Positions 3,674 through 48,769 of a stretch of DNA of 64,000 nt are shown here, piece by piece. The stretch lies in NCBI GenBank assembly GCA_030390025.1, contig CM059432.1, positions 46,254,001-46,318,000 on the forward strand, in the 5' to 3' direction. The notes beneath the pieces are model-generated. The model saw nothing but the letters and a program-made list of their open reading frames with translations, did not search any database and had not been told where the DNA came from. Within the stretch, counting starts at the first letter, position 1, and each line of letters opens with the position of its first letter. Made by a program: the position numbers and the translations under genes. The DNA is from Squalus acanthias. Lineage: Eukaryota.

Positions 3674-5607
3674 ATGTCAGGCACCAGACCAAAGTGTGCA
3701 CCCCGCTTCGATGAGAACTCCCTGCAAGCTCTGGTGGAGGGAGCAAGAGCAAATAAGGGAGGAAAAAGCCTCCACAACAGACCAAAGCTGTGTGGCTGCA
3801 AGTGGCACAGGAGGTGAATGCCATATCAATGTGCAGCAGAACCTGGCTGCAGTGCAGAAAGAGGTTTCATGACCTTCTGCGCACAGGAAAAGTGAGTATT
3901 CCATCCCCATGACCATCAATCTGATCCCCATCGCCTCTCATCACCAGCACTCTGCTTTGTCAACCTCCTCCTCCACATCCCACTTGACCCTTACATCCCT
4001 GCACCCTTAACCATTCCCTCTCTCTGTATGTTCACATTCACTAAAACATTCGACTATGCAGCCCTCACACTCCCTATCACTGTGATGCAATGACAACAAC
4101 TTACAACACACAGGGAGGGCCCTTGGTCTTGGCACCTCACTCCATCTTTGTCTCCTTCTAAGCATCTATGCTATGGATTCTCCACACTCACTCCTTCATT
4201 CTCACTCAAACTCCACTTGTGTCCCTCATTGCAGGAAAAGAGAGCCCACAATCAGAGGGAGAGGGCGAGGACAGGAGGAGGGCCACCCTCAATAGCCCAG
4301 CTCACCACTGCAGAGGAAGCGTCCCTGGAGATCGTGGGAGTCGGGGAGGATGCGCAAGTAGGGGACGGACAGACAGGCGCATCAGAGCAAGCTGGTGACA
4401 GAATAGTTTTTCATCTCTCTCATTGACATTGCATGAGTGACTGATATTGATTCTAATGCTCTAACAGATTGACTTATGATCATCTACACAATTCAATGTG
4501 CATGCAACGCTTATCTCACATGTCTAACTCTTTCCTTTACTCCCCCACAGGACCATCAACAGCCCCCCTCCCCACTGTCCAGGAGGAACAGCCTGAGCAC
4601 CCAGACTCCACAGAGGAAGCTGCAACCTCTGAGGGTGCAGCGTCAGCAGAATTAAGCACACCCAGCACCAGCGCAGACACTCACACCTCGGTGGGACCTT
4701 CGGGAGATGGTGGAGACAGGAACAGCAGTGGAGAATCCTCGTCAGAGGGCGCAGGACTCTCCCAGCTCGGCTCCGCTGCATGTCGACCCTGTGCCTCCGG
4801 GTCCATCCAGAAGGAGAGCAGTGCTGGAACTCCAGGAACAGGTGCAGGAGTCTCTGGCAGGTCTTGTCTCCAGGGTCGCTGCGAGTGTGGAGTGAATGGA
4901 GGAGTCCATCGCTAACATGAGCAGGGCCTTTATGGAGGCGTTGGCACATGAATGCATCACCACGGAAAGGATGGCAACCTCCGTGGAAAGGATAGCTACC
5001 TCCGTGGTAAGGCTGGCTACCGAAGAGGAGAGGATGGCTACGGTAGAGGAGAGGATAGCTACGGCCATGGAGGAGCTTAGTCGCCAGGGTCTTGAAAACA
5101 TGGTCATTGTTCAGAATAGACTGACATCTCTTGAGGAGCAATGGTCAGCTATTGAGCAGAGAAACCTGACCTTCATGGAAGTCCTCTGGAGTAGGACTTC
5201 CAGTGCAGAAACGGGTCCTCATGGCCCCCCTGAAGTGCAGCAAGGTGCTGTCAAGCCACTTGCTAGCTCTGAAGTGGGGCTGAACCATGAGAGGGATGTT
5301 GGGTGGCAGAGAACAATGAAGTGGGGGCTCCTCTCCAAGCGCTCACACGACCATGCCACTCCAGAGCCCTCGGTCAGAGCCCCACCAGAGTCCGGACCCA
5401 ACTGAGATCGGCGTCTCAACCCCTGCACAGCCGCAGGAGCAGCAGACTGTTGCCGAGCCCTCACAGGCTCGCAACCGCAGAGGACGCACGCCAAAGGTGT
5501 CGAGGCAGGAGCAGCAAGAAAGTGAGCAAGGGGCCTCCACATCTGCTGAAGCCACAGGGGAAGCACCACATAGGAGCATGCGTAAGAGGAAGATAAAGCA
5601 CAAGTAG
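3674..5607 (+). pseudogene. Harbinger Myb/SANT-like DNA-binding protein gene, 3 exons, frameshifted
   Basis: Exon 1 3674-3891 (APRFDENSLQALVEG...WLQVAQEV...RTWLQCRKRFHDL, then GTGAGT); exon 2 4235-4394 (EKRAHNQRERARTGGG); exon 3 from 4551 with heptad repeats and a basic C-terminus (RKRKIKHK). Confidence 0.8.
4965..5075 (+). repeat. 21-bp tandem repeat encoding coiled-coil heptads
   Basis: ERMATSV-ERIATSV-VRLATEE-ERMATVE-ERIATAM in ORF 4896..5405. Confidence 0.75.
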
Positions 5608-5863
5608 TCACAAGGGTAGTCACTTGGTTGTTCTGTTATGTTTATTTTTGAAAAGCTATCCGTGACTTTGTGATAAAAAAACTTGATGGCAAACTGTTGA
5701 CGTTGTGGCCTGTGTCATTTCGCAAATGGGACTTCCACATTGAGGGTTTAGGGCAACTTGCAATTGTCAGTATGGTGGTCAAAGTGATAGGAATCCGTAG
5801 GTTCCTGGCCATTGTCGATGCTCTGGCAAGAAGGTGCGAGGCAAAAGTGTTTGATTGGGCAGG

Positions 5864-7115
5864 CTAAGCAAATCTGGCCAAGATGAGTGCGTCCCCTGCA
5901 TCCCGGGCAGCAATGTGCTCACGTGCTGCTGCCGCTGGTTGATGCGCCTCTGCAAGCTGTTCGTTGTCACACTCCTCCTCCTCCTCCTCCTCGTCCTCAT
6001 CTGAGGAGGCTATGCGATGAGCCACTTGTACCTCAGGCAGCTGCAAGTCACGATGCTGTGCCATGTTGTAAAGTGCACAGCAGACCACGACGATTCTGGA
6101 GACCCTGGCTGCTGAGTACTGCAGGGCTCCACCTGATCTATCTAGGCATCTGAATCGCATCTTCAGCAAGCCGATGCTTTGCTCGATTATGGATCTGGTG
6201 GAAATGTGGCTGGAGTTGTAGCGCTCCTCAGCTTCATTGGATGGGCTCCTCAACGACGTCATTAGCCAGGTCTTCAGGGGCTAGCCCTTGTCTCCAAGTA
6301 GCCATCCGCAAAGTTGGTCTGGCAGACTGAAGAGCAGAAGCACACTAGACTGCCGCAGGATGAAGGAGTCATGGCAACTGCCAGGGTACTTGGCGCAAAC
6401 ATGCAAAATTTCCTTCTTGTGGTCACACACCAGCTGCACGTTGAGGGAGTGGAAGCCCTTGCGGTTGATAAAAATACCTGGATTGTGATGGGGTGACTTA
6501 AGGGCCACATGTGTGCAGTCAATGACGCCCTGCACCCTTGGAAAGCCTGCCAGATTAGCAAATCCAACTGCATGCGCGGTTACACTTGCTTGATCCTTGG
6601 AGAAGTTGATGTAATTGTGCGCATTGGCAAAGAGGGCATCGGTTACCTGCGTGATGCAAGTGTGTGCGGCCGCCTGGGAGATGCCGCTGATGTCTGCTGC
6701 TGATCCCTGGAATGAGCCTGAGGCAAAACAGTTGAGTGCGGGTGGTGACTTTGACGGCCACTGGTAAGGGGTGTCCACCCGCTCCTCTGGGCTCCAGGTC
6801 TTGCTGCAGCATTGCGCAGATGTCACCCACTACCTCTCGCGAAAGTCTGAGCCTCCTTTGGCACTGCTGCTCAGTCATGTTGAGGTAGCTCATCCTCTAT
6901 CTATAAACCCTGTTTTGGGGGTATCTCCTGCAGCGACTTGCTGCCATGCGGTGGCGCCTTCTGGCCTGTGCAGCTTCAGGTGGGTGAGCAGCAGCTTGGC
7001 GCTCCTGTTGTTGCTCCTGCTGTTGGTGCTGCTGTTGTTCCGGGTGCTGCTGCTGCCGCGGCTGGTCTTCATCCGAATCTGATATCCAAGAGGAAAGGAA
7101 ATAAATGGTTCCCAT
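5864..7115 (-). pseudogene. Harbinger (HARBI1-like) DDE transposase, frameshifted
   Basis: The coding sequence is spread over ORFs 6897..7115, 6281..6826 and 5864..6262, with motifs [35 protein letters not shown] and IIEQSIGLLKMRFRCLD. Confidence 0.9.
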
Positions 7116-20832: not shown

Positions 20833-22996
20833 CCTCTCATTAGCACCCCCGGGGGCACCAACAGGGCACAAATCCCCTAGCGCCCGGGCGCAGCGCCGCT
20901 AACTCACCCTGTGAAATTCAGCGGGAGATTAGCGGTGGCGGTAGCCGGTAGCGCCCTGCGTCGCTGCGCCGCCAGGGATGGCGTCATTGCCGTGCGCAGT
21001 GCCCCGTTTGTGTCCCGGCCGCAAACTACCCTTGCGCCCCCTGACATATCGCTGGACGATATGTCTGACAGGATCAAAAGGCGTTTTTGCAGCGGCGGCG
21101 GCACTACTTAAAGGGCAGGTGTCGGGAGGCCATTTTTATTTTGGCCGACTGCCAGCACCTGCCCCCTTTCCCTTTTTTATGTGGGGTGCCGGCCGCAATC
21201 GCTCAGCCCGGCACTCCTCTTGAGTGCCGGGCTTTTTTCACGGCACCCCACTCCCAGGTGGTCCAACAGGGCCCTGGTGCGTGTAGTTCTAGGCCCCTCC
21301 CCTTTAATCAGGGGAGGAGTAAATTCTTTTTTGAACACCTCTCACTGATCTTCGGTCATTTTATCCAGGTTACTGTGGATAGTTTCTGTCTCATCGCATT
21401 GAAGTCAGCGATGCAAGTTATTTTTATTGTTGTTGTTGTAGTCTATGCAACCTTTCCTCATAATTTAGCCTTCTTAGCCCCAGTATCATTCTGGTGAATC
21501 TGCAGTGCACCCCTCCGAGGCCAATATATCCTTCCTGAGGTGTGATGCCCAGAACTGAACACAGTAGAACTGAATGCGGCCTAACCAGAGCTTTATATAA
21601 CTGTAGCATAACTTCCATCGCTTTGTATGCCAACCCCCTTGAGATAAAGGTTAACATTCCATTAGCCTTTTAATTATTTTTTCTACCTGTCCACTAGCTT
21701 TTAGTGATTTATGTACAAGGGGGGAGAAATTCGGTATCGCCCCGTTTGGGGCGCAATTATCGGCTGGGTGCAAAGTTTAGCGCCTGGTGCTAATTATCAC
21801 CTCTGACTGCAAATTTGGCTTCTATCGCCCCTGGAGGTGATTGGAGCGCTAAATCAGGTGCTACACACCTCTCTTAAGGCACTAACGCCGAGGAGCGAGG
21901 CGCTAACTCAGAGCGCTGGCGAAGCTCATGTGATGTCAGTCAGCAATGCAACACAGACACACTGGCGCCAACCAGTTCTTAAAGGGGAGGGTCGATGGAA
22001 TCATCCACCTGCGGTACCAGTGACCACATTCCCAATTCCCCATTCAACATTTATCCCACACCTTACCTTCCCTCTGTTACTGACCATCACAGCATCCTCT
22101 TGGCCACAATGCTGAAAAAAAAGCCACCACAAAGCAAACTTTCCAATCCAACTTTATGCATCTATCCATCCAATATGACATCAAGAAATCAACTTATCAC
22201 CCATATGCATTCCCTTAGTACCTGTCTTTTGTGTGCCTTTGCCTATCCTAGTGATGTCATGCAGTGCTACCCCAGTGGCTGCAGCATGGCTGGTAGAAGG
22301 CTGCTGATTTTCAGTGGGGGACACTGCAGATGGCCCTGCTGGTCGACCTTGAGGAGCTGGTGGCTGGGAATGTCAAGTCGAGTGACGGTGTTCCTTCTTT
22401 TTCTTTTTCTTCTTCTTCACTCTCCTCTCCCTCGTCTTGGTCAACCATTGGCTGGGCAGGCTGCCTTTCTTGGTTAGAAACATAGGGGGAAAAATTCAGT
22501 TGGTTGCGCCTCCCGTTAGCGCCTTAGGAGGGCGCTAATGGGGCGCAAAGCAGCTAGCGCCCGGGCGCAGCGATGTTTGCGCCGCTCGCGAACTTAACTA
22601 GACATTTTGCGGCGGCACTAAACTTTATCGCCGCGATCTCCTGCATGCGCAGATTGTGACGTCATACGAGAGTGCAACGCCCTTGTGGCGCCCCGGAGCA
22701 GAATTTCAGTGGCGCCCCCATCCTTACCGCCTGGCGCATCCAACGACCGGAAGAGTGGAATGCTAACAATCGGTGTGGGGCTGGGGGGGGGGCGCTATTT
22801 AAAGGGGGCCTCTTCCTGTCTTTCTCTGTGGTTGACATTTTTGCACCACTCGTTCTGAGAGAGAGAGAGAGATTCGGAGAGAGAGAAAGAGAGACTTCTG
22901 CATTGAGTCAACGCTGTGTGAGGTAGTTTTGGCTACTCATCCTAACTTCGCTGGTACTTTGGTTTCTGGCCTTCATAACTTTGCTTGCTAAGAGAT

Positions 22997-25900
22997 ATGG
23001 GGGATGCACTGATGGGGGGCGTCGTCCTGCGCCAGCTGAATCGGAGGAGACAGAGACGCAGAGAGAGAGTGGCAATGATGGCCAGACGGAGGAGGGCCAA
23101 CAGGCGTCTGTACAGGAGAGCTTACCCTCCCAGGGTATATCGTGAACAGCTCTCCTACATTCATATGTCTGATGAGCAGTGTCTGCGAAGGCTGCGCTTC
23201 AGCAAGGAGGTGGTCACTGAGCTCTGCCACCTGCTGCAGCCAGATCTGCAGCCTCAACTGAGGTCCAGGACGTCTCTGTCGGTGGCAGTGAAGGTCACAG
23301 TGGCTCTCAACTTTTATGCTACTGGCTCATTTCAATCTGCTGTTGGGGACATCATAAGAACATAAGAACATAAGAAATAGGAGCAGGAGTAGGCCAATCG
23401 GCCCCTCGAGCCTGCTCCGCCATTCAATAAGATCATGGCTGATCTGATCCTAACCGCCAATCTACTATCTATCACAGAACCATCTCCTGCATCTAACAGA
23501 ATTGCACACACGAAATAGGAGCAGAATCAGGCTACACAGTCCCTGGGCCCGCTCCACTACCCACAGGGCCATGACCGATCCGAACCTAGACTCATGTCCA
23601 AATTCCTGCCCGCTCCCCGTAACCCTTAATGCCCTTTACTTCTAGGAAACTGTCTATTTCTGTTTTAAATGTAATTAATGTTGTAGCTTCTACAGCTTTT
23701 TGTGGCAGCATATTCCATGGACCTACCACCCTCTGAGTGAAGTAGTTCCTCCTCATCTCAGTTTTGAAAGAGCAGCCCCTTATTCTAAGACTATGTCCCC
23801 TAGTTCTCGTCTCACCCGTCATCGGGAACATCCTCCCCGCATCCACCCGATCCAACCCCTTCACAATCTTATATGTTTCAATAAGATCGCCTCTCATTCT
23901 TCTGAACTCCAATGAGTAGAGTCCCAATCTACCCAACCTCTCCTCATATGACCACCCCCTCATCCCCGGGATTAACCGAGTGAACCTTTTTTGCACTGCC
24001 TCGAGAGCAAGGATGTCTTTCCTTAAGTAAGGACACCAAAACTGTATGCAGTATTCCAGGTGCGGTCTCACCAATACCTTGTACAACTGAAGCAATACCT
24101 CCCTATTTTTATATTCTATCCCCCTAGCAATGAAAGCCAACATTCCATTTGCCTTCTTAATCACTTGCTGCACCTGCATACTAACCTTTTGAGTTTCGTG
24201 CACCAGGACCCCCAGATCCCTTTGCACTTCAGTACTCTCCAGTTTCTTGCCATTAAGATAATAAATTGCTCTAGGATTTTTCCTGCCAAAGTGCATCACC
24301 TCACACTTTCCAGTGTTGTATTCCATCTGCCAAATCTCTGCCCACTTACTTAGCCTGTCTATGTCCCCTTGCAGGTTTTTTATGTCCTCCTCACTCACTA
24401 CTTTCCCTCCCATCTTTGTATCATCTGCAAATTTTGATATGTTACACTTGGTCCCTTCCTCCAAATCGTTAATATAGATTGTGAAGAGTTGGGGACCCAG
24501 CACTGACCCCTGTGGAACACCACTAGTTACTGATTGCCAGTCTGAGAATGAACCATTTATCCCAACTCTTTGCTTTCTGTTAGATAGCCAATCCTCTATC
24601 CATGCCAGAATATTACCCCCAATCCCGTGATTTTTTACCTTAAGCAATAATCTTTTGTGTGGCACCTTGTCAAATGCCTTTTGGAAGTCTAAATACACTA
24701 CGTCCACTGGTTCCCCTTTATCCACTCTATATGTTACTTCCTCAAAGAACTCCAGCAAATTTGTCAAACATGACTTCCCCTTCGTAAAACCATGCTGACT
24801 TTGTCCTATTAAATTATGATTATCCAAATGTCCTGTTACTGTTTCCTTAATAATGGACTCCAAAATTTTACCTACCACAGATGTTAGGCTAACCGGTCTA
24901 TAGTTACCAGCCTTCTGTCTACTGCCCTTTTTAAATAAGGGTGTTACATTAGCAGTTTTCCAGTCTGCCGGGACCTTAGCGGAATCCAGGGAGTTTTGAA
25001 AAATTATTACCAATGCATCTACAATCCCTACCGCCACTTCCTTCAAGACTCTAGGATGTAAGCCATCAGGTCCAGGTGATTTATCCGCCTTGAGTCCCAT
25101 TATTTTACCGAGTACCACTTCCTTAGTGATTTTGATCGTGTTTAGCTCCTCTCCCCCTATAGCCCCCTGTTTGTCCAGTGTTGGGATATTCTTAGTGTCC
25201 TCTACTGTAAAGACTGATACAAAATATTCATTCAGTGTTTTTGCCATCTCCATATTTCCCACCATTAATTTCCCGGTCTCATCCTCTAAGGGACCAACAT
25301 TTACTTTAGCCACCCTTTTTCTTTTTATATAACTATAAAAACTCTTACTATCTGTTTTTATATTTTTTGCTAATTTACTTTCATAATCTATCTTCCCTTT
25401 CTTAATCAATCTTTTTGTTATTTTTTGCTGCCTTTTAAAGTTTTCCCAATCCTCTGTCCTCCCACTAGATTTCGCTACCTTATATGCCCTTGTTTTTAGT
25501 CGAATACTATCCTTAATTTCTTTACTTAGCCACGGATGACTGTCCTTTCTTTTACACCCTTTTCTTTTCAGTGGAATATATTTTTTTGGAAGTTGTAAAA
25601 TAACTCCTTGAATGTACACCACTGATCATGTGTCGTCTTACCCTTTAATCTATTTTCCCAATCCACTCTACTCAATTCCGCTCGCATACCTTCATAGTCT
25701 CCTTTATTCAAGCTTAGCACGCTTGTTTGAGATCCAACCTTCTCACCCTCTAATTGAATATGGAATTCAACCATGTTATGGTCACTCATTCCAAGGGGAT
25801 CCTTTACTAGGACATTTTTAATTAATCCTGTCTCGTTACACAGGACCAGATCTAAGGTTGCTTGCCCCCTGGTCGGTTCAGTTACATACTGCTCAAGAAA

Positions 25901-27855
25901 CCCATCCCTAATACACTCAATGAACTCATCCTCAAGGCAGCCCTGCCCCATTTGATTTGTCCAATTAATATGATAGTTAAAATCCCCCATAATTATAGAT
26001 GTTCCCTTATTACATGCCTCAACTATTTCCTGATTGATACTCCGTCCAATAGAGTTGCAACTGTTCGGAGGCCTATAGACTACGCCCACTAATGTTTTTT
26101 TCCCCTTATTATTCCTTATCTCCACCCAAACTGTTTCATTATCATGATTTTTTGACCCAATATCATTACTCTGTATTACAGTGATTCCTTCCTTTATTAA
26201 CATAGCCACCCCACCTCCCCTTCCTTCCTGCCTGTCCTTCCTGATCGTTAAATAACCTGGTATGTTTAATTCCCAGGCATTGTCACCCTGCAGCCATGTT
26301 TCTGTAATGGCCACAATATCATAACCATATGTAGTTATTTGTGCCATTAACTCGTCTATTTTGTTACGAATGCTACGTGCATTCAGATAGAGAACTTTCA
26401 AATATGCTTTGTGGCACTTAGTTCCTGCTTTTTCACTTTTTACCAGTTTACCTTTTACTCCACACACTCTGTCCCTTCCTGCCACGCTCTGATTTGTGAT
26501 TCCCCTACTGCTACCTATGTCTATGACCCTCTCTGTTGTCATTTTTATTTTTTGCTCTCTTGAAACCTCCCCCCCACTAATTAGTTTATAGCCCTCTCCA
26601 CAGCCCTAGTTATTCGATTCGCCAGGACACTAGTCCCAGCACTGGCCAAGTGAAGTCCGTCCCAACGGAACAGCTCTCTCCTGCCCCAGTACTGGTGCCA
26701 GTGTCCCAAGAAGCAAAACCCATTTTTCCCACACCAGTCTTTGAGCCACGCATTCAACTCCCTGATTTTATTTACCCTAGCCAAATTTGCTCGTGGCTCA
26801 GGTAGTAATCCAGAGATTATTACCCTCGAGGTTCTGCTTTTTAATTTGGCCCCTAGCTGCTCAAACTCCCTCAGCAGAACCTCTTTCCTTGTCCTATCTA
26901 TGTCATTGGTACCAACATGGACCACGACAACTGGATCCTCCCCCTCCCACTCCAAGTTTCTCTCCAGCCCAGAGGAGATGTCCTTAACCCTGGCACCGGG
27001 CAGGCAACACAGCCTTCGGGACTCTCGCTCTTGGCTGCAAAGAACCCTATCGCCAATATCTCCCAGTTCGCAGTGCATTGCTGCATCAGGAAGGTCACAA
27101 ATGCCCTCTTTAAAAGGAGACGAGAGTTCATCTCTTTCCCCATGACCCCAGACAAGCAGCAAGAACGCGCTCTGGGCTTTGCGAGGATAGCGGGCTTCCC
27201 CATGGTGCAGGGCGCCATTGACTGCACGCATGTGGCTTTGCGTGCTCCTCATGAGAATGCCGAGGATTTCCGGAACAGAAAGGGGTTCCATTCCTTGAAT
27301 GTTCAGTTGGTCTGTGACCACAGACAGCTGATACTCGCTGTCAATGCCCACTATCCTGGCAGCTGCCACGATGCTTTCATCCTGCGCCAGACTACTGTGG
27401 CAGAACTTTTCGAGGCACCGCATCAGCCAGTTGGTTGGCTTCTCGGGGACAAGGGGTATCCACTGAGCACCTGGCTGATGACACCGCTCCGTACGCCCAA
27501 CACCCCTGCTGAGCTGCGGTACAACGAGAGCCATCAAGCTACCAGGAACATCGTGGAGCACACAATCGGCGTGCTCAAGCAACGGTTCCGCTGTCTCGAC
27601 CATTGTGGAGGAGCCCTGCAGTACTCGCCTGAGCGAGTTTCCAACATCGTAGTTGTGTGCTGCATGCTGCATAACATGGCAATCCTCAGGACCCAGCCAA
27701 TGCCACCAGGCCTTGGAGCACCACCAGAGGAGGAGGAGGAAGAGGAGGAAGAGGACGAGGAGGATGATCAGCAGCAGCACCAAGGCGTGAGGGCAGCCCA
27801 CAATGGTGAAACTGCAAGGGCCGTCCGTCAGCGGCTGATAGCAAGCCGCTTCTAG
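22997..27855 (+). CDS. Harbinger DDE transposase (386 aa after removing the CR1 at 23354-27051)
   Basis: 22997-23353 (...TGSFQSAVGDI) joins in frame to 27052-27855 (ANISQFAVH...). Catalytic motifs are GAIDCTH, LLGDKGY and RNIVEHTIG, followed by an acidic tail. Confidence 0.92.
23354..27048 (-). mobile_element. young 5'-truncated CR1 inserted in the Harbinger transposase
   Basis: ORF1 SGNH-esterase part (CLPGA, HVGTND, DGLHL) at 26581-27048. ORF2 is ORFs 25568..26542 plus 23592..25622, one frameshift apart near the T-run at ~25581-25587. (TTCTTATG)n tail at 23354-23375; ATC is duplicated at the junctions. Confidence 0.95.
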
Positions 27856-28166
27856 GCCCCTGCTGTGGAAATGGCTTCTGCCATTGAGAACAGCATGAAT
27901 GAACCCAACACGCAACCCCTAAGCCGGCCAAGGCACCAATGATTCCAAACACCAAACATGTATATTTTGAGTACCAAAACTTATTTATTTTACAAACTCT
28001 GTGTGTGTCATTTCTTCATGACAAACTCATACAAATAAACACAAAAAAACAGTCATTACCATAACTGGTTCTCACAACCTGGAGATCATGTGCAAAACAC
28101 TCAACAAAAGTTTGACCACGAACCTCGGCCTTTAATAAAAAAATGACCAGCATTTTGTCACACCTC

Positions 28167-29956
28167 CTACATCGAGGGTGAACTCCTTCCCGTGCGCCCT
28201 TCCCCCCTTCTTACCCTACTGCTCCTCCGCAATGGGACCTCAGTGGCTGCAGCAAGGCTGGTGGAAGGCTGCTGACTGTCAGGCCCTGACAATGCAGATG
28301 CCCTTGAGGGACGGCCTCGACTAGTTCTGGGCCTGGAGGGCCCGGCTGCAGACTGCACCAACTCTGCATGGGCGGCAGCAGTCTGTCCTACAGGCGGTGG
28401 CAACTGCAGTGGAGAACTGACAGTGGTGGCAGCAGGAATGCTGTCATCTTGAGCGAGGACAGCAACTCCCTGCTCGACCGGCACACTGGCACTCCCACGG
28501 GGCAGCACCTCATCATCCGGAGCAATCTGCTGGAGCACAGATTGCTGGCCTGCTGCGGCGCGGTGAGACCCCCGGGGAAATGTGAACGAACCAGCGAGGA
28601 TGGCAGCAGACAGTGCTCGCGTGACCTCAATCTGAGTCTGCATGAGAGCAGTCTGAGATTGAATTGCAGCACTGAGCTTCAGTGTCGCATCCGCCTGCGC
28701 TGCAGCGAAGTGCTCCACACTCCTTGCCAGTGCTTCAATGCATTCGGGCACCCTACCCACTGCAGCCATGAGCTCAGTGTGCATGCCCACCGCCTGGGTG
28801 TTCATTTCTGCGATCAGCCGCTCCTCCTCTGCGTCCAGTGCAGCAGGACTCGCTGGCATACTCTCCCTCCGGGGAGAAGGCCCACGAGCTTCCCTACCCC
28901 CATCGCGTTGCTGCAGCCCGCTGGGTCCTGGAGCTTCACCCTCATCAGACCCTTCCCCCCTGCTCCCCTCCAGGGAAGGCGTGTTCTCAGTATCGGCATA
29001 GGCTTCCTCGGGAGAGGGTGGCACTGATGCTCCGGCTTCCTCTTCCTCCTCGGCTGCAGCTTCACTCCCACTGGCAGCTTCAGGGCCCGTCTCCTCAGCT
29101 GGTGAATCACCATCTGAAAGCAGGGAGGTACAAGAGTGGCTTTAGCGTGAGGACAGGGTGGCAGTAAGGGAGGAATAAGTGCAGCGAGTTAGTAAGTTGG
29201 ATTGAAAGTGTCAAAGGCTGGTGTTGTGAGGGACAAGTGGAAGGACAGAGGACAAAAAGGTGATGACCTTACCATTGCTGTCCAGAACGGGGTCGGCGTC
29301 TCCAGTGGCGACGGGACCGATCACCCGGCTTGCCACAATCCTGTGGACGCGCTCCTCAAGATCGCTGAGGGGTTGCAGCTGAGGCCGCCCTCCACCTGTC
29401 CGTTGCTGCTGTCTCCTATTATGCGCCAGCTTGGCCTGCAAGAAAAAGGACGGCGTCTGAATAAATATACAGCCATGGTCTTGCCTGATGTGCCTCCCAT
29501 AGGTGAATAGCCCTTACTGTATACAGCCATGGTCTTGCCTGATGTGCCTCCCATAGGTGAATAGCCCTTACTGTAGTCAAAGTATGGAATGTGTGTGTGT
29601 GCTTCATGAAAGGTCCATAGGTGTTGGATGAGTGTTGTTAATTGTGGTTTTAAGACCCTCTGGCCATAGAGTGAGGTTGAGATGGAGGGATGGAGAGGTA
29701 TTGCAAAAAAGCCACTCACCCAGACGACCCGAGTGAGGTCGTTGAACTTTTTCCGGCATTGTACATGGGTCCTGGGCACCATGCTCCTGGAGGAGACGCG
29801 CTGAGCCACCTCCCTCCACACTCTTCTGTAGTCGCACGGCAAAGGCCTCCTGCCACTCTCTGGGTACAGTATTGGTCTTCGGCGCTCCACCGCGCCAACC
29901 AGAGCATCCAAGGCCCGCTCGGTGAAGCGCTCAGCTCGTTCTCTCAACCCCTCCAT
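28167..29956 (-). CDS. Harbinger Myb/SANT-like protein, 3 exons, 448 aa, apparently intact
   Basis: Exons 29956-29720 (237 nt, donor GTGAGT), 29435-29273 (163 nt, acceptor TGCAG, donor GTAAG) and 29113-28167 (947 nt, acceptor TTTCAG) splice in frame to 449 codons. Trihelix signature RFTERALDALV...VWREVA...QCRKKFNDL. Confidence 0.88.
29467..29574. repeat. 54-bp tandem duplication in Myb intron 1
   Basis: ATACAGCCATGGTCTTGCCTGATGTGCCTCCCATAGGTGAATAGCCCTTACTGT occurs twice, starting at 29467 and 29521. Confidence 0.9.
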
Positions 29957-30317
29957 CCTTGGCTGGAAAATGGATTCACAGGTCTCTCCAGGCCGAGATT
30001 CAAGGCTGCAATGAGCAGGGTGTGGCTGGGGAGCAAGATCGCCCCCCCCCTTTAAGAACTGGCCGGCGCCAGTGTGTCTGTGTTCCCTCGCTAACTGGCA
30101 GCACCTGCGCTGCGCTCGCGCTCTGAGTTAGCGCCTCACTCCTCGGCCTTTGCGCCTTAAGACAGGTGTGCAGCGCCTGATTTAGCGCTCCAATCACCTC
30201 CCGGGGCGTTAAAAGTGAAGTTTCCAGTCAGTGGCGATAATTAGCGCCAGGCGCTAATTTTTGCGCCCGGACAATATTTGCGCCCCAAACGGGGCGCGAC
30301 TGAATTTTTCCCCCATA

Positions 30318-34306: not shown

Positions 34307-36047
34307 TTACGTCATGTATCGTGACATAAACCCAAGATCCCGGTTGAGACCGTCCTTATGAGTGCGGAACTTGGCTATCAGTTTCTGCTCGATGATTTTG
34401 CGTTGTCGTGTGTTTCTAAGGCCGCCTTGGAGAATGCTTACCCGCAGATCCGAGGCTGAATGTCCTTGACTGCTGAAGTGTTCCCCGACTGGGAGGTAAC
34501 AATCCTGCCTGGCGATTGTTGCGCGGTGCCCGTTCATACGTTGTCTCAGTGTCTGCATGGTCTCGCCGATGTACCATGCCGCGGTGCATTCTTTCCTGCA
34601 ACGTATGAGGTAGACAACGTTGGCCGAGTCACATGAGTATGTACCATGTACCTGGTGGGTAGTGTCCTCACGTGTGATGATGGTATCTGTGTTGATGATC
34701 TGGCATGTCTTGCAGAGGTTGCCGTGGCAGGGTTGTGTGGTGTCGTGGTCGCTGTTATCCTGAAAGCTGGGTAATTTGCTGCGAATGATGGTACTTCTGA
34801 GGTTAGGCGGCTGTTTGAAGGCAAGTAGTGGAGGCGTGGGGATGGCCTTAGCGAGGTGTTCATCGTCATCGATGACATGTTGAAGGCTGCGAAGAACATG
34901 GCATAGTTTCTCCGCTCCGGGGAAGTACTGGACGACGTAGGGTACCCTGTTGGTTGTGTCCCGTGTTTGCCTTCTGAGGAGGTCTATGCGATTTTTCGCT
35001 GTGGCCCGTCGGAACTGTCGATCGATGAGTCGAGCGTCATATCCCGTTCTTACGAGGGCGTTTTTCAGCGTCCGTAGGTGTCCATCGCGTTCCTCCTCAT
35101 CTGAGCAGATCCTGTGTATTCGCAGGGCTTGTCCATAGGGGATGGCTTCTTTAACGTGGTTAGGGTGGAAGCTGGAGAAGTGGAGCATCGTGAGGTTGTC
35201 CGTGGGCTTGCGGTAGAGTGAAGTGCTGAGGTGTCCGTCTTTGATGGAGATTCGTGTGTCCAGGAATGAAACCGATTCTGAGGAGTAGTCCATGGTGAGT
35301 TTGATGGTGGGATGGAACTTGTTTATGTTATCGTGTAGTCTTTTCAGTGATCCTTCGCCATGGGTCCAAAGGAAGAAAATGTCGTCGATGTATCTGGTGT
35401 ACAGCGTTGGCTGGAGGTACTGTGCAGCGAAGAAGTCTTGCTCGAACTTGTGCATGAAGATGTTGGCGTATTGGGGTGCGAATTTGGTCCCCATGGCTGT
35501 TCCGTGTGTTTGGGTAAAAAAATGGTTGTCGAAGGTGAAGACATTGTGGTCAAGGATGAAGCGGATGAGTTGTAGGATGGCGTCTGGAGATTGGCTGTTG
35601 TTGGTGTTGAGTACTGAGGCTGTCGCAGCGATGCCGTTATCGTGGGGGATAATGGTGTAGAGTGCCGATACGTCCATCGTGGCGAGGAGTGTTCCTGGTT
35701 CAACTGGTCCGTGGGTGCTGAGTTTCTGTAAGAAGTCTGTAGTGTCGCGACAGAAGCTGGGGGTTCCCTGTACGATGGGTTTCAGGATGCCCTCGACGTA
35801 TCCAGAGAGGTTCTCACACAGGGTTCCGTTGCCTGATATGATAGGACGTCCGGGTGTGTTGGCTTTGTGTATCTTTGGGAGGCAGTAGAAGTCTCCCACG
35901 CGGGGAGTACGTGGGATGAGAGCGCGTAGGATGTTTTGAAGGTCTGGATCGAAGGTCTTGATCAGTCTATTGAGTTGGCGGGTGTGTTCTTTGGTCGGAT
36001 CTGCGGGTAGCTGTCTGTAGTGTTCCTGGTTGTCCAGTTGTCGGTAT
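34307..36047 (-). CDS. Penelope reverse transcriptase + GIY-YIG endonuclease (5'-truncated, otherwise open)
   Basis: ORF 34307..36103 contains LPKIHK, GRPIIS, MDVSALYT, GTAMGT, RYIDDIF and VVYLIRC...WYIGET...GLN. The first ~18 codons come from the inverted arm. Confidence 0.9.
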
Positions 36048-36550
36048 GTTGTCGGCAGGATTGTTACCTCCCAGTCGGGGAACACTTCAGCAGTCAAGGA
36101 CATTCAGCCTCGGATCTGCGGGTAAGCGTTCTCCAAGGCGGCCTTAGGAACACACGACAACGCAAAATCATCGAGCAGAAACTGATAGCCAAGTTCCGCA
36201 CTCATGAGGACGGTCTCAACCGGGATCTTGGGTTTATGTCACGATGCATGACGTAATCCGGCTTGTTCACAGATGTGATTCCCAGTAAAAAAGTAAACAT
36301 TTTAAAGTTTATCGTTTTACATACAGACTGCAGCTTTTGACACGTTAGACCCCCTGTGACTCCACCTCATTGTCTCAGTTGTATCTTTCTATGTCTTTGA
36401 TGTGGTACCTTCCTGGCTGACCTGATTGCCTTTTGTCACACCTCGGCAGATAAACAGTCAGGATGATTAAATTTAGTTGTCTGCCATTGTAAGGTACACA
36501 TGCATTGTTCTCTATCTATATATGCTTTGGCGATTCTGTATCTCTTTACT

Positions 36551-40324: not shown

Positions 40325-43300
40325 TCAAAACCTAAAGTTTAATTTGTCTCCCGTAACATATATTAATCGATTGTACTTTAAAAATTGATCGTAAAATACT
40401 ATCTTTAAATTCCTTTCTGAATAAAACATCCACAGAGCCTTATAATGATCTTTTAGCTTATATTTAAAATACTCTTTTAGATTGATTCTCCTCCCCTTAA
40501 AAAACAGAACATTCCTTCTTTGCACAATCACGAATCTAGCCAAACTGAACATTAAATTAATTGCCGCTCCGCTAGACTCGGGCAGACTCTCCTGCAATCC
40601 CCATATCAAAATTGAGTCCCACGGGATTCCCATTCTCGCTCTTCGGTCCCCACCCAGCAAAAAAACTTCACACAACTGTCAAATATAGTACTTAAAATCA
40701 TTTAACTGTGGACATAACACCAGTAAATGGGACAGAGTCTCATCCCATGTCCCATACACTGGGTAAGTTGCCCCCTCTACTTGTCCAATCTTCCACAAGA
40801 CCGTCATGGTAAAAATCCAGTTATGAGCCAATTTGAAATCCAGTTCAATCCACTCTGGACATTTAAAATTCGCCCACACTCCCTTCCAAATCCTGTTGAA
40901 GTCCAGCTGTGGGTAGATCCTCTGCCAAAACTCCTGACCAGCAGGTGTCTTGAATCTCCATTCTCTAAATACCTCATAGAAATCTCGAGTATTACAGTTG
41001 TCAAATTGAACCAACTCTCCCCCTTTCTCCAGCAGAAAGCTTGGAAAAGCGGGACGCATTTTACTTCCTTTGGAGATTTCCGCATTTATTTCTTCCATCC
41101 AATCCTGTGGTATTGCCCTCACAATCGTCTCATACATGATCCCTATTGCTTTTTCCTCTACCTCCTGATCCTCCTCCCACACCATGTCCCTCACTATCGC
41201 TTCCGGCAACCACCCTGGAATTACCTCGTATAATACATCTTTCACACATATAGTACCAGCTTTTATAAAAGCTTAATTAAATAATACCTCTCCTTCAATG
41301 TTGACCCACCTGTTCAAAAATAAGGGCTGTTCTAAAAATTCCTCAGCACCCTTGGGCTTAAACTGCACACTTTTAAAAAATTGGGCCCAAGTCTGTACAA
41401 CCCCCTTATAAAACCTAGGGAGAGGTTTAATCGATTTCAAAAACATATTATTGTATTCCATATACAATGGCCCAAAAATTAGTGAGTGAGCCTTCGTGCG
41501 AGGGTAAGGCTTCCCCGCGATCTCTCACTGCGCGCTGGCTTTTTTATTCCCAGCTCGCACGAACTTGATGTTCTGGACAGCAGCTGTGCAGGGCTTTCGT
41601 ATCCCACAGGCGCAGTTAATTCGTGCGAGCTGTGGGATCACGTGACTCAGTTAGAGCCAATGGCAGCACACCATCTTTCATTCATAGCTTTCACAGCACG
41701 GCTGTGAAAGCTATGAATACTATACCCCCCCAAAAGAACAGCTAAACCTCAATTAAATTTAAAAAAAAACCCATCACATTAATAAAATAAGTATAGTTAA
41801 ATAAATTAACCACTTTAAACAAAAAATTAAATTTTTGAAAAAATTTAAAATCTTTTAAAAAGTTATAAAAATAAACTTACCTTTCTTTAAAGTCTCTAAA
41901 AAAGATATACCTGTTGAAAAAAATTCAAAATACTTAATTAACTACTTACCTTGTTAAAAGAGGGTCTTATGCCTCCTTTCTTTATGTGTAAAATGTTCCA
42001 TGCTTACCTGCGCGTTCAAAGCACTAAGTGCACTGCGTGCGCGCAGCTTGTAGCGCGCACGCGGTTCACCTAGGAACCGCCCCCTTTTGAAATCACCAAG
42101 TGCCGGTTTTCAGCGCATGCGCAGTGCATGCAGAAAACCGGCAATTGGAGACAGAATACGCGAGAGTACACAGTGCGTACTCTCGCGGAGCGGCACTAAT
42201 TTTTGGGCCAATATCCCCTGCCCTCCTATCCCACTTAGTTTTAAAAAATGCTCGAAACAACTCTTCCAAAAACTTGTATTTGACTTCTGAAGAAATCTCT
42301 TCACCCATTTGATTTTTTCTTCAAATCAATATCTGGGAAATTGAGTCCTCCCTGATTTCTCCGTCCAATGATGGTATTGTAAGCAACCAAGGCTGGTTTC
42401 CCTTCCCATAAAAACCTCACACAAGCCTCTTGGATGGACTTTTCCGCCCACTCAGGAATATCCTCCACCATCAATAAGTACCATAGCTTAGATAGCAGGA
42501 GAGCGGACACCACTGTCACTCTGCCTTGCACTTTCAACCACCTTCTTTCCCATCTTCCCAAAATTTTTTAAATTTTCATAACCTTTGGTTCCCAATTTAA
42601 TCGATCCACTTCATCCCTGTCTTTCTTACACCCCATATGCACCCCCAGAACTTCCAAAACCTCCACCACCTTAAAGGGACTTTCCTCCAACCATTCCCCC
42701 CTACCCCTTCCTGCAACCAGGCATTGGGACTTACTATAATTCACTCTGGCTCCTGAAGCTCTACAATACTCCTCAACTACATCCATAGCTTTCCTCACTG
42801 ACTCCCCATTTCTCAATGTTAAAGTTGTGTCATCTGCATATTGGTGTATCACCGACACCAGCCCAGAACTTGGAACCGCAATCCCAACTACACCTTGTTT
42901 CTTTCGCATCATGTAACCTAATGGTTCTGCTACCAATGTGTACAACAATGGGGACAGGGGACAACACGGTCTCACTGACCTCTGTATTGGAAAATACTTG
43001 GATAAAACACCATTACATTTAACACAGCTAAATATGTTTGAATAAAAAATCTTTATCCACTCAATGAAATTTTCCCCGAAACCAAATGCTTCCAAAACCA
43101 TCAATAAAAACTCATGAGAGACCCTATCAAAGGCTTTCTCTTGATCTATCTTTAATACATAAGCCTCCCTCCCACTCTCTTCCATGAGCTCTATCGCATC
43201 TCGGATTGAGACCACAGAGTCTGCGATGTCCCGGCCTATGACTCCATAGGACTGAGAGGGCAAAACTATCTGTGGCAACACCTCCTTCATACGATTTGCC

Positions 43301-44901
43301 ATAACCCTCGCCAAGATCTTATAATCCACATTTAATAATGTAATGGGCCTCCAATTCTTCAGATCCCTTCTATCCCCTTTATTTTTATAAGCTAAGCTTA
43401 TGACACCTCTCCTCATAGATGGGGCCAGGCTTCCCTCAATTTTAATTTCCTTAAAAACCTCTAAGAGCAATGGACTTAAAATCTCGAAAAATTCTTTATA
43501 AAATTCTGCACTTAGTCCATCGGACCCTGGGCTTTTCCCCCCTTCATTCCACTTATTGTTACTTTTATTTCTGCTAATCCTACTTCTTTGTCACACATGC
43601 TTCTCTCATCCTCCTTTAAACCCTCTTCAATAAAAGCACTAACCTTCTCCATCGCCAAATCGGAAATGTCTTCTTTTGTATATAACTCTTGATAAAAGCT
43701 GCTAGCCGCCTCTAAAATCTCCCCACTTTCATTAATGATCTTCTCCCCAACCTTCAACTCTCCAATTACTGATAATCTCTGTCGCAGCCTCTCTTGCTCT
43801 AGAAAATATCTAGTGCATCTTTTGCCCTCCAATGCATCTTTAGCCTTTGCACGGAGAATGGCCCACTTGCATTTTTCAGCTTGCAATAATTCCCACTCTT
43901 CCTTTAACACCCGGAACTTAGTCTCAGCTCCCTTATCCCCTCCGTCAACTGTTTAACAGACATCCGTAAACCTTTTGTTTATATTCTCTTCTCGACGCCG
44001 GTTAGCTGCCGCTCTCTTTTTCCCATAACGTACCGAAAAAACTTTTACCTCATATTTGAAATTGTCCCACCAAACTCTTCTTTCTTTAAGAAAAAATGTT
44101 CCTTCCGAGCATTCTTTATTATATTTAAAATCCCTTCTTTATAAGCAATTTCTTTCAGGTATTGATTGTTTAAAATCCACACCTCTTAACTCTGCTGTTC
44201 CTAATTCTAAGAACCAAAGCCGAGTGGTCACTAAAAAATACTTTTTTGTAATAAATCTCCATCACCTCAGAACTTAACCCTTCCTGTATTAACACAAAAT
44301 CTATTCGGCTCTGTTTTAAAACATCACCCACCCAACCTGTTCTGGAGAATTCCCTTTTTATGGGGTTCTGGTCCCTCCATAAGTCTTTCAAATTTAAATT
44401 TGCCATCATTTTTACAATCATCCCTCTGGAGTTATCATCCTTATAGGTCATCTGGGCTGAAATGTCCATCCAAGATAAAAATACATTAAAATACCCCATT
44501 ATACAAGGATTTTCCACCTCTGCCACATCAGTGAATAAACCCCGAAAAAACTCGCGACACTTGCAATGGTCGTTCGGTGCATAGATATTAAAGAGATCGC
44601 AATTAAATTCCTCCATTTTTACCCTTAACCGTAAAAATCTCCCCTCAGTGTCCTTGTCCACCAAGGCAACATTCTCTTTTATGGATGGACTCACCAAAAC
44701 AGCCACCCCTCTATGGTTATTGTTTGCACAACTTGCAAACACCTCTCCCTTCCAAACCTTCCGAACTCTTTCTAGGATATCCTCATCCCAAAAGATTTCT
44801 TGCAGACACAACAAGTCAGTGCCTTTAAAACACTGCAACAACTGCTGCAATTTCTTCTCACCCCTCAGTCCGTTCACATTAATCGAGACCAATGTAATCA
44901 T
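40325..44901 (-). pseudogene. Tx1 ORF2 (APE endonuclease, RT, C-terminal zinc motif), multiple frameshifts
   Basis: SINVNGL, CLQE, NIYAPN, SRIDF, SDH, NWRPITLLNVDYKIL, DQEKAFDRV, QYADD and ETLSHLLVLCP. Confidence 0.9.
41469..42209. mobile_element. Harbinger-type MITE (741 bp) inserted in Tx1 ORF2
   Basis: Perfect 16-bp TIRs GGCCCAAAAATTAGTG, AAT TSD (41466-41468 and 42210-42212), AT-rich core and internal palindromes. Confidence 0.9.
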
Positions 44902-44939
44902 GGCTCCGAATAAGGGAAGTATGCCTGATAATCTCCCCA

Positions 44940-46622
44940 TCATTTAATCTCTGGCCCTTCCCTCCTCTCATGCTCCTTCCCAACTTTTCGGCCAGCTGTT
45001 GCTTTTTCCTGCAGCCTCCGGCTCTTTTTCACCTCCTGTTTGAACCTTCCCTGCTGTTTCAACCTCTTCCTTGCATTAAGTTTGGGCCAAGAAGCTGCCC
45101 CTTCTCCCTCCTTCTGCCCCTCACTAACCTTTCCCTTTCCACACGATGCCACCCCACCCCCCACTTCCATGTCTCTGTCCCCCTCTAATTCTTCACTCTC
45201 GAGCTCTTCTGTAACCTTCTGTTCCTGCTCCCCGTCAGATACATAATCCTGCTCCCCGTCAGATACATCATCTCCCATTGAAAGTCTTCCTGCTATCGCG
45301 GTTTCTCCAACAGTGCCGCTCCCTTCGACTTTATCTCCACCACTGACCCTTGCTCCCTGATCCTTCTCTCTCTGGGACAATGGCGCACCTATATTGCTCC
45401 CTTCTGGCGTCTTTGTCTCGCCACTCCCATCCTGCTGCCCCTTTAAGGCTCCTGCCTCTTGCACCCTCTCCTTGTCTTGCCCCCTCCTGCTCACCGAGAT
45501 GTCCGACTCCCCATCTTTCTTTGGAGTACTTACATTTACCATGCACCCCGCTCCCGCCTCCTCTCCCCCCGCGGACACCAGACGCTTTAGGGAGAACTGA
45601 ACCGTATTATGGCTCAACTCGGCCCTCGACCTGTGCTGCCCTCTGCTGTCTTTGTCCTTTTCCACTGTACTTGGTGTGTTTTCCACCATCTCCATCCTGT
45701 TCTCTGCTCTGCAATTTTCTGCCTCTTCCTGCGCTCTTTTCTCCTTCAATTCACCAGCTGTGTCCTCCGACTGCTCCACTCCTCCGGCCGTTCCACTCAC
45801 ACCTCCTGCTCCTTCTCCCATCTCCTCATCACTCATAGAGCTTCCTTCTGCTTCACACTCACAGCGGGTGGGGTCTTTGTGACACATCCCACGGCTCTCC
45901 GCCTTGCATCTCCGAGCGATGTGTCCAGACTCACTGCAATTATAACAGTACAAGTCCGGACACTTTCTTACAAGATAGTCGTGTCCAACACAATAATAAC
46001 AAACCTTCACTTGGTTATCATGCAGTACTCAGAAGTACTGCACTCCTTCCATTGTCTCGAATTTCATGCTGTACGGTAACGACTTCACCCCCTCTGGGAA
46101 CCGTACCTTTACGTAACGGGTTCCATCTGCTACCCGTGTTCCTGGATAGTATCTGCTCTTTATTGCCAAGCAAATTTTAATGTCCCACGCCTCCAACTTT
46201 TTGATTAGCTCATCGTCCTCAATATAAACCAGCAAGTTTAAGAATGAGACCACCAGCTCTTCCGAATATAGCAGAGATACCTCCAAGAACTTATCACTAA
46301 CCTTCAAACTGAGTAAAAGTCTTTCCACCTCCTCTCGGCCACTGACCATCACCTCGAACCCAACATTCGGCTTTGGTCGGCAGGCAAAGCAGCTTCCCTC
46401 GCCGCAGTCCTCATGTACCACCTGGATAATATCCCAAGCTCGTATCTCCTTGTCCTCGCACTGAACCACCACTGTGTTTTCTTTCCCAAACCTCCTAGGG
46501 TCCCGGCCCAAATCTTTGGGCCTTTTTCTCTCCCTTCCAACAACAGTTTCTCCCCTGATTAAATTCATCTTGGGAACACTGTCCTCTGAGGGGCCCGGCA
46601 CTCCAGGCCCCTCAGCAGCCAT
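44940..46622 (-). pseudogene. Tx1 ORF1 (zinc-knuckle nucleic-acid-binding protein), one disruption near 46020
   Basis: YPGTRVADGTRYVKVRFP...SLPYS; knuckles CYYCVGHDYLVRKC and CYNCSESGHIARRC; long acidic/basic low-complexity tail. Confidence 0.85.
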
Positions 46623-48769
46623 CTGGCTGATGTTTATGGGCCAAAAAGGCCCTAAAACCTGAAAAAAAAAACACCACCAACTTTTTACAAGCTCACTCCA
46701 ACTCCCTGCAGTAATCAGGCAACCAGCAGCACCTGCTTACTCCTAGTCCCTCCCACCTGGCGAGTGCTACCTACTGAGTCACTGGCTGAATATTGTGATA
46801 AGTATATTGTGATCTTGGGAAAGACACTGAAGGGTGTGGATGAACGAAACCTAGAAGTTCAAGTACATCATAGCCTAAAAATGTGATTGCAAGCCATAAA
46901 AAAGGTCAACTTATATTCAACTGTTTTGGCTACTAAGTTTCACATTCTCTTAGCTTTGTTGATTACTGCTTTGTACTGTTGACATGTTTAGCATCAAGTC
47001 TACTGAGACTCCTCGGTCATCCATTGAATGACATTTCTGCTTTTTCTTTCAAAATACATTACTTAACATTTCTCCATGGTAAATCGCGTGTACCACCTGT
47101 CTGCCCATTCCACTACAATTCTATGTCTTCCTAAAGTCTTTTACAGTGCTTCTCGCTGTTTTATAAAGCTCCTGATCAAACAGTAAATGTGGTGCACCTG
47201 GATACACTGAAGATACATGATGGGCCACATAGCCCACTCTACATAAATCATCACAGTTCCTTGCACTGCAATCCCTGTCTAACTGCCTAGCTTAAAAATG
47301 TAAAAATGTGAACCTACAGTCTTAATAGCACCAAACGCATAAGACTCAAACTCTACTTACTTCGCACAAGTGTTAATTATGGAGAAAATAATCTTTTACT
47401 TACCAATCCACATCCTGAAGCTTCAGGCAAAAAGTCCTTTCAGTTCTGGTTTTTGAATTGGGCAAAATCCCCTCCAATTACATCTCATACCATTGCCCTT
47501 CACCAAAAGTGAAAAGCAGGTGGGGGATGGGAGAACATAATCCAATGAAAGATTGTCGGCGCCTTAGTGGAGAAATGGAAAACCTACCCTTTACTTTTGT
47601 TCCGTGACTCCTTATACAAATTATTCAACTGAGCTACTGAATGTTTTTTTTATTAAAAATGGAATTGGATTGAAATTGAGATTGTCCAAATTCATTATAA
47701 ATTTCCCACATCCCACACCATTCATCTTGTGAGTTCCCTGAGGAAGATTATCAATTTAATGCTAAATTGTGGGTAGCTTTGCTCTGGCCTTGCATCCACT
47801 AGCAACTGGATTAAGGCTGTCCAAAATTACTTCAAATAGGATTGTTACAGATAGAATGAATAGACTTTCATCCCATTATTCTGGATTAAATTAAACACAG
47901 GGCCCCATGAAAGGACAGTGTAACTATCTTTCCCTACGCCCTCCCCCATCCACCTCTATATTTTAACATTTAAATGCAAATGTATTTTTGATTAGGGAAT
48001 TCCCATAAAGGAATCTGTGACTTGAATGTCATTAGTTTACTTGTTGAAATTGAGTTCCAGAGAATCATGTGCATCATATCCTTAACGTGAGTGTGGCACG
48101 TACAGAAGTGATGTGCGTACATCTCCAGGCCCGATTTTTGGTAAGAAAATAATGGGAAATTTCTTGAGCTGTGGGGGTTCTCAAACTCAGGAGGAAATCA
48201 GTTTTCACTAGATCACCAACCCAAAAGAATCAAGGAATTTATTTTAATGGTCCCTATATATGAGCCACAGGTTCTGTAGTCAAGTGCAATCTGCAGTATT
48301 GATTTTCCGCTACTGTATTATGCTTTTTATTTTTAATATACCTAAGTTGTAGTATATAGCTTAATTTGCATGGCCTGAGAGAGTAATTATTTTTCTGATA
48401 CCTAAATACTAAGCAAACATGAGAGAGTTTGTGTCAATTCCAGTAAGCTAATTACAATAACAAAGATTTTTATTTGACCCTTAAGCAATGCTACATTATC
48501 ATATTATTGTGAATGCAATCAAACACTGGTCCATAGGGAATGAGGGTTCAATTATAGGAGACGTCTTAGGAGCTGAGCATGTCTGGCAAAGGTCTAAAGA
48601 CATAACAGCAGCCATTAAAGGTAAGTAGTGACAGATGAGGCAAATATTGTGTTCACCTTTAAAAACGCAATAAATATTTCTGAGGTACATTTGAACCTGT
48701 TCGGGTGGCAATCCCCAGTGGATGGCATAATATGTGTGAAGAAGAAATAGGAGGCTCAATAAAGGTCAC

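Follow-up and report, generated by a model that had tools for sequence, protein, structure and literature searches.

Background

Zebrafish Harbinger3_DR/Harbinger3N_DR (Sinzelle et al. 2008, as described in PMC2836001, PMC3016246 and PMC9392472) is a system of two proteins, terminal inverted repeats (TIRs), a target-site duplication (TSD) of 3 bp and a palindromic extended target. The same set of features is found in the Harbinger-type element analysed here, which lies at positions 22482–30317 of a 64,000-nucleotide stretch of the genome of the shark Squalus acanthias (assembly GCA_030390025.1, contig CM059432.1, positions 46,254,001 to 46,318,000), referred to below as the window. According to published accounts, Harbinger3_DR needs both of its proteins, and its Myb-like protein binds the element ends and the N-terminus of the transposase and imports the transposase into the nucleus (PMC2836001, PMC9179366, PMC9392472). 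Harbinger3_DR was rebuilt from a consensus, whereas about 20% of the natural copies of the shark family are intact.

Natural two-gene vertebrate Harbingers with many intact copies have also been described. Harbinger-Snek of sea kraits, as presented in PMC8437027, has 269 such copies in L. colubrina and also non-autonomous derivatives; RNA covers both of its genes, and its burst has slowed. It was acquired horizontally and makes up 8–12% of the genome, whereas the shark family has about 500 autonomous copies. The NuwaI and NuwaII groups of PHIS (PMC4482050) likewise carry DDE and Myb/SANT genes in elements of about 4–4.7 kb with GG-ended TIRs of 13–46 bp. The same source gives 88 potentially active PIF/Harbinger families, Harbinger expression is reported in teleosts (PMC9179366), and native activity is described for the related Spy group (PMC11304231). 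An earlier note on this DNA had proposed the element as a ready candidate for a natural vertebrate Harbinger system; intact ones such as Harbinger-Snek are already published. Searching the literature, mainly outside subscription journals and without supplements or Repbase, we found no native vertebrate Harbinger active in cells and no published elasmobranch Harbinger family. The sole vertebrate Harbinger for which we found transposition shown in cells is the zebrafish consensus rebuild, so that a near-pristine natural copy would be a cheap test substrate. PMC4482050 reports PHIS elements absent from sharks and PMC9179366 reports Harbinger absence for the elephant shark only; these statements do not hold for the present genome.

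The window element is very probably a dead copy of an autonomous Harbinger-type family of about 500 members whose burst is likely long over, and its decay likely preceded the insertion of the CR1 element that now interrupts it.

Structure of the window element

The element is bounded by 16-bp TIRs (left, 22485..22500, plus strand; right, 30299..30314, minus strand) that are perfectly complementary over 16 bp and diverge beyond. ATA adjoins both ends (22482..22484 and 30315..30317), the right copy being followed by the remainder of the octamer tail and the 3' end of an older CR1. The ATA duplication given in the earlier note is thus correct for this copy but is no constant of the family, in which the first 51 perfect duplications comprised 22 trinucleotides. 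Excision of the 5'-truncated CR1-type long interspersed nuclear element (LINE) of 3698 bp (23354..27051, minus strand) yields, as had been predicted, a 4132-bp element with an open frame of 386 amino acids. The excision junction reads exactly as in copies that lack the CR1: over 24 bp, 33 of 38 aligned rows are identical to it, and the other five differ by point changes only.

Codons 1–119 of the transposase, the N-terminal helical part as judged from a model of an intact copy's protein, occupy 22997..23353, and codons 120–386 with the stop occupy 27052..27855, both on the plus strand. The second part holds the catalytic triad D176 (27220), D252 (27448) and E288 (27556), which falls within the motifs named in the earlier note and is invariant in 67 of 67 copies, as well as a private C304 (27605). 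The protein matches the Pfam domain DDE_Tnp_4 (E 3e-42) and also Plant_tran.

The convergent Myb-like gene lies on the minus strand, and the three-exon splice model 29956–29720 / 29435–29273 / 29113–28167 does give a protein of 448 amino acids, although several alternative GT-AG combinations likewise stay open. Its donors are of the AG/GTGAGT type and G/GTAAGG, and its acceptors are pyrimidine-rich. Exon 1 (29720..29956) encodes a Myb/SANT trihelix domain (Myb_DNA-bind_5, E 1e-8) with private residues C41 and W79 where relatives have R. Predicted intron 1 (29436..29719, 284 bp) includes a 54-bp tandem repeat (29466–29573), of which individual copies have between 1 and 5 units, and exon 2 (29273..29435) is followed by intron 2 (29114..29272, 159 bp). 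Exon 3 (28167..29113), which gave zero Pfam matches, encodes an acidic, low-complexity part and a helical segment.

Size and intactness of the family

A 26-mer taken in the spacer that separates the two genes has 460 exact matches in the 3.7-Gb genome, compared with 0 for its reversed control, from which we infer a family of about 500–600 copies once mutation is allowed for. A capture-recapture estimate (6 of 35 common, about 230 copies) was superseded by this exact count. All 64 matches on contigs C1 and C2 served as an unselected census. Both TIRs were present in 48 of the 51 newly fetched census copies, and five of the 51 carried insertions of about 0.3–1.8 kb, so that a nested insertion like the one in the window is nothing unusual. 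Of the 64 census copies, 13 (95% confidence interval 11–32%) had both frames and every splice site intact, or about 90 intact copies genome-wide; seven census copies that were not aligned (four with large insertions, three without one end) were scored as broken, and as two of the four large insertions lie outside the genes the count may be slightly low. Among the other 110 aligned copies, in which young ones are over-represented, 36 have both frames open. Single-base indels were scattered with few recurrent sites, and homopolymer assembly errors were rejected as the source of the broken frames.

A low-divergence, complete two-gene Harbinger-type family with near-identical intact copies therefore exists in the genome, in agreement with the earlier note. 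The reconstruction that the note had foreseen is unnecessary, because 13 of 64 census copies are already intact, and as a ready candidate the window element is the wrong copy. The real candidate for a test is the intact copy L032 (G000:C19:33740426-33744558, corresponding to L032:1201-5333), which differs from its lineage majority at 3–4 bases and is by far the youngest of the 111 aligned copies.

The copies form a star-like tree, in which three sub-lineages number 74, 27 (B) and 10 (C) copies. Lineages B and C have unequal TIRs, with GGGCT at one end and GGGGG at the other; as both spread in this state, a match at TIR positions 4–5 is not required. Two census copies, L129 and L135, have an identical internal deletion of element positions 553–1195, which means that a deleted form was either moved or duplicated in its turn.

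Genome-wide, a 22-mer of the left end is matched 12,065 times. When 20 were sampled from the first 24 listed, 17 proved to be non-coding elements of about 890 bp (L150–L168), which have the same left 22 bp and the same target motif and are 90–97.5% identical to one another, and three were autonomous relatives at 92–95%. The non-coding elements form an older family of roughly 10,000 copies, which earlier members of the lineage likely mobilised in trans. All of the sampled relatives are older, which indicates that the lineage was active in successive waves. A 277-bp right-end fragment of the 890-bp family, about 90% identical, lies in the window at 21720–21996, and beyond it, at 22261–22352, is a piece of the end of an older Harbinger's Myb gene.

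Age of the family

Terminal branches of the tree amount to 0.80 and internal branches to 0.05. Changes found in single copies appear neutral, with nonsynonymous-to-synonymous ratios (dN/dS) of 0.93 in the transposase and 0.83 in the Myb-like gene. Transposase variants common to at least four copies have a dN/dS of 0.35 (7 synonymous, 8 nonsynonymous), a hint of purifying selection on the source copies. CpG sites are four times as diverged as non-CpG sites. Median divergence is 0.85%, and the 111 aligned copies include no identical pair, the closest two differing at 13 positions. Ranked genome searches, each of which scores the best 40 candidates, found no identical twin of L032 over either of two 1.1-kb stretches and no identical twin of a lineage-B copy. 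The star-like tree, the neutral private changes and the lack of identical copies together indicate that the main burst is probably past.

The only measured shark rate that we found, 7e-10 per site per generation (confidence interval 1.4–14.1e-10), was obtained in another species (PMC10587355), and at that rate the median copy is about 8 million generations old (4–41 million) and L032 about 1 million. The family was mobile recently, as the earlier note held, in the sense of low sequence divergence, but not necessarily in years.

Several observations weigh against a burst that is simply over and a copy that decayed before it was interrupted. L032 is an outlier against a Poisson spread around 35 differences (P about 4e-11), which implies that some source was active well after the burst. 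Spliced transcripts of the family occur in related organisms. Myb variants common to at least four copies show no purifying selection (3 synonymous, 16 nonsynonymous), and dN/dS between older lineages is 0.5–0.7, on small counts. The relative date of the CR1 hangs on one substitution, and about 118 of the roughly 500 copies were sampled in total. One might suppose that the family still transposes today, at a low rate, from one or more of its approximately 90 intact copies, with L032 (both frames open), the intact fraction of about 20% and the splicing of intron 2 in six of seven putative RNA runs all speaking for it. We think this unlikely, since four ranked genome searches and the 111 aligned copies gave no identical pair, neutral decay to the observed divergence would by itself leave 20% of the copies intact, even four differences represent about a million generations at the published rate, and the spliced RNA comes from other organisms and from copies that are a few percent apart from these. 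The earlier suggestion that the family may still be active finds no support in twin copies, although L032 keeps the possibility alive.

Decay of the window copy and insertion of the CR1

At 33 of 4131 sites the window copy departs from the majority of its lineage, and it has three near-private residues in the transposase and eight in the Myb-like protein, with A3D, S304C and R79W among the changes. Non-CpG differences number 22 in 3731 sites of the host copy versus 1 in 2150 of its CR1 (Fisher p 7e-4), and the median non-CpG divergence is 0.57% for the Harbinger family (n 57) versus 0.27% for the CR1 subfamily (n 19; p 8e-6). Provided that both mutate locally at the same rate, the CR1 landed after about nine tenths of the host's residence. 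The view that the element was disabled by a single CR1 insertion is at the least overstated, as the 11 residue changes were likely acquired before the much younger CR1 arrived. These earlier changes may have inactivated the copy; judged from the sequence, the CR1 was probably the last blow and not demonstrably the first.

It could be argued that the copy worked until the CR1 landed and that removing the CR1 would restore a working element. Taking out the CR1 leaves both frames, the catalytic triad, both TIRs and all four splice sites unbroken, and the 11 residue changes include zero stops and zero catalytic residues. However, residue 304, a C in this copy, is serine in 66 of 66 siblings and in 32 of 35 homologs and is C in none of the homologs, while C41 and W79 replace arginines kept in 62 of 66 and 64 of 66 siblings, at positions inside or at the end of the Myb domain. 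Given also that some 33 differences make this an average decayed member of the family, we regard a functional copy at the time of insertion as improbable.

A different objection is that the differences did not arise by decay in place but were inherited from a source lineage outside the sample, or are errors of the assembly, in which case the CR1 could have landed early. Many of the differences are transversions, 22 of 37 are common to at least one of 110 other copies (mostly one to a few), and the CR1's only frameshift, a base missing relative to four relatives in a T run near 25580 of its endonuclease frame, resembles an assembly slip. Yet the best genome-wide matches to 27052–28200 are five bases off and of the majority type, and 15 differences are unshared among the 110 copies. 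The enclosed CR1 has 1 unshared substitution in 3271 sites, indicating that local base error is low. We hold this objection to be very improbable and retain the reading in which decay came before the CR1.

Transcription and splicing

Splicing was assessed in seven runs, from two studies of two other organisms, whose RNA type was guessed and whose copies differ by a few percent from those of the host. Alignments of the RNA contigs, like the motif counts and structure models below, were made on L032 rather than on the window copy. Intron 2 was exactly skipped, as CT..AC on the plus strand, in runs X1–X5 and X8 but not in X6, and run X11 retains it with zero differences over 313 bp. Runs X9 and X10, whose word shares were small, were left aside. 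Of the two introns predicted in the earlier note, intron 2 is therefore supported, and the junction of intron 1 was unseen among the listed contigs of all seven putative RNA runs. As the RNA derives from divergent copies in other organisms, these data indicate that the lineage is transcribed and spliced and are not proof for the host's own copies.

Intron 1 has indirect support. Only one of 37 copies departs from the conserved splice sites, the 54-bp repeat within the intron is variable, and two shark or ray gene models (P0010, P0121) run continuously across the join of exons 1 and 2. One contig of run X5 (depth 7) joins the intron-1 acceptor to a donor near 30198, which is a hint only. Read-through of intron 1 as a second product of 211 amino acids is open in lineage A and in a 95% relative and has stops in lineage C; it showed no selection (2 synonymous, 7 nonsynonymous changes) and was rejected as chance.

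Possible mechanism

By analogy with Harbinger3_DR, the spliced Myb-like protein would bind GGCGCW repeats behind both TIRs through its exon-1 trihelix, the helical segment of exon 3 would bind the transposase and bring it to the element ends, and the DDE transposase would then excise the element and insert it with a 3-base stagger. In the window, GGCGCW motifs are clustered in the left (22485..22744) and right (30055..30314) subterminal regions. The left 260 bp of L032 contain 8 (shuffle mean 1.3, maximum 4), the right 260 bp contain 7 (shuffle mean 1.0, maximum 4) and the 3.6-kb interior contains 7. These repeats are the putative binding sites of the Myb-like protein.

The L032 transposase model (predicted local distance difference test, pLDDT, 87.6) has a long N-terminal helix and places the triad as in PHIS transposases, with the first D in a strand, the second after a strand and the E in a helix. 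A Foldseek comparison with the PDB gave no match at E <= 0.001 and only weak hits to DDE transposases, e.g. piggyBac with a template-modelling score of 0.33. In a complex prediction the L032 transposase and a 110-amino-acid segment of exon 3 scored 0.53 against 0.00 for the best of three controls; agreement between runs covered at least 42% of contacts, and the partner pLDDT was at least 75. Of 78 solved pairs, 51 reach the mark applied, as do 2 of 108 mismatched ones, the figures for eukaryotes being 39 of 65 (solved) and 2 of 126 (unrelated), but at scores of 0.60 or below it was reached by only five of the 78 solved pairs and by all four passing mismatches. The model thus weakly suggests that the exon-3 segment is the transposase-binding part. 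A protein search with this segment gave zero matches among 6765 candidates, and one with exon 1 matched 1 protein.

Target-site choice

Perfect 3-bp duplications were found at 91 of 114 independent sites, which indicates dispersal by transposition and not by duplication; matches of 2, 4 and 5 bp occurred at 5, 1 and 1 of 67 sites. The 91 sites define the palindrome (T)WARASWC-WNW-GWSTYTW(A), about 19 bp long, whose flanks are more informative than the duplicated bases. The symmetrised profile holds about 8 bits over 19 bp and reads T(0.52) W A(0.64) R A(0.83) S W C(0.65), the triplet, and the mirror image. The central triplet is W-rich and almost never has G first or C last, and among the 91 it is WNW in 69, ATA or TAT in 26, TNA in 14, TWA in 10 and CWG in 1. 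The best letters at positions -6 to -1 are A A A C A C (0.64, 0.47, 0.83, 0.38, 0.54, 0.65), identical to the left arm of the Harbinger3_DR target, AAACAC-CWG-GTCTTT (PMC3016246). The central triplet of Harbinger3_DR, which we could compare by its published description only, is CWG, unlike that of the shark family. From the sequences, this pattern of matching flanks and a differing triplet suggests that readout of the flanks is the conserved part of target choice.

Octamer tails of CR1 elements, recognised with a hand-made pattern, account for 14 of 114 insertion sites versus 0.33% of background positions. Homing to CR1 tails as a special mechanism was considered and rejected: a motif trained without the tail sites predicts 6.9% against the 12% observed, so that sequence preference explains most of the excess. 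The 8-bp tail repeats fit the target motif, which accounts for the position of the window copy. Independent insertions struck the same base of different repeat copies three times in one repeat (L042, L043 and L094, with flanks 74–92% identical, by eye the start of CR1 open reading frame 2, ORF2) and twice, in opposite orientations, in another (L050 and L098).

Classification and origin of the lineage

With its DDE transposase, Myb/SANT trihelix gene, TIRs and 3-bp TSD, the family belongs to the broad Harbinger superfamily (PMC9179366, PMC9392472). Its 16-bp TIRs are below the usual 25–50 bp (PMC9179366) and inside the range of 5–1042 bp given in PMC4482050. The duplications do not follow the subgroup signatures described in PMC4482050, namely TWA for narrow PIF/Harbinger (10 of 91), CWG for NuwaI (1 of 91) and C|TNA|G for NuwaII (full pattern 3 of 91, TNA 14 of 91), and for this reason we do not file the family under any of the three. 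The C and G that flank NuwaII duplications are common in the shark family as well (C 65, G 54, and both together 38 of 91).

The transposase has 399 HARBI1-type homologs at E <= 1e-20. Shark and ray proteins labelled 'putative nuclease HARBI1' (sawshark, electric ray, devil ray, sevengill and others) are 55–68% identical to it and are probably transposon copies that were so named by gene pipelines; domesticated HARBI1 is single-copy, whereas the shark element is multi-copy and flanked by TIRs. Entry of the lineage into the shark group by horizontal transfer, as with Harbinger-Snek, would be compatible with a family that is now past its burst. Seven organisms hold 9–57% of the family's sampled words, pieces of up to 167 bp are identical in one other organism, the best database protein is only 68% identical, and Harbinger transfer among marine animals has been reported (PMC8437027, PMC9179366). 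On the other hand, the named top protein hits are all sharks and rays, with sturgeon, caecilian and lungfish lower at 41–46%, and a ladder of older relatives in the same genome, from autonomous elements at 92–95% and miniature inverted-repeat elements at 90–97% to remnants in the window at 60–77%, fits long residence. We therefore judge horizontal entry distinctly unlikely.

The inserted CR1 and other elements of the window

The insert combines an apurinic/apyrimidinic endonuclease and a reverse transcriptase (RT) with an esterase ORF1 and an 8-bp tandem tail (Pfam RVT_1, Exo_endo_phos and a GDSL esterase-like ORF1 piece). Its octamer tail is at 23354, the RT frame at 23592–25625, the endonuclease frame at 25568–26605 and the esterase-like ORF1 piece at 26581–27051. 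We take it to be of the CR1 clade from this architecture rather than from a tree. ATC stands at both junctions, as a short duplication or as microhomology. The subfamily is very young: a 27-mer has 7,658 exact matches, and relatives are 98.8–100% identical, one of them agreeing with the majority at every one of 2221 sites. It is a better candidate than the Harbinger family for current activity. A DNA search with its 5' part returned zero matches, owing to the great abundance of its words.

Elsewhere in the window lie at least four further Harbinger relatives, older and broken (3–420, 4457–6900, 49347–52954 and 58613–60550), with transposase pieces 35–75% identical. Named by eye from their translations, a frame of 598 amino acids with RT and GIY-YIG-like parts (Penelope-like) lies at 34307–36103 and a Tx1/L1-like LINE at 40679–46736, both on the minus strand.

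Significance

The shark family is ordinary in kind, a new member of a known superfamily that brings no new kind of biology. Its useful outcomes are the near-pristine copy on contig C19, which is available for an assay, and a target motif with a loose centre. As a tentative proposal, which we consider possible but doubtful, the natural copy L032 may encode a working two-protein Harbinger, and its 19-bp target of about 8 bits with a loose WNW centre may represent a type of PHIS targeting outside the published groups. If true, this would provide a native vertebrate Harbinger tool from a lineage that has been reported to be without such elements.

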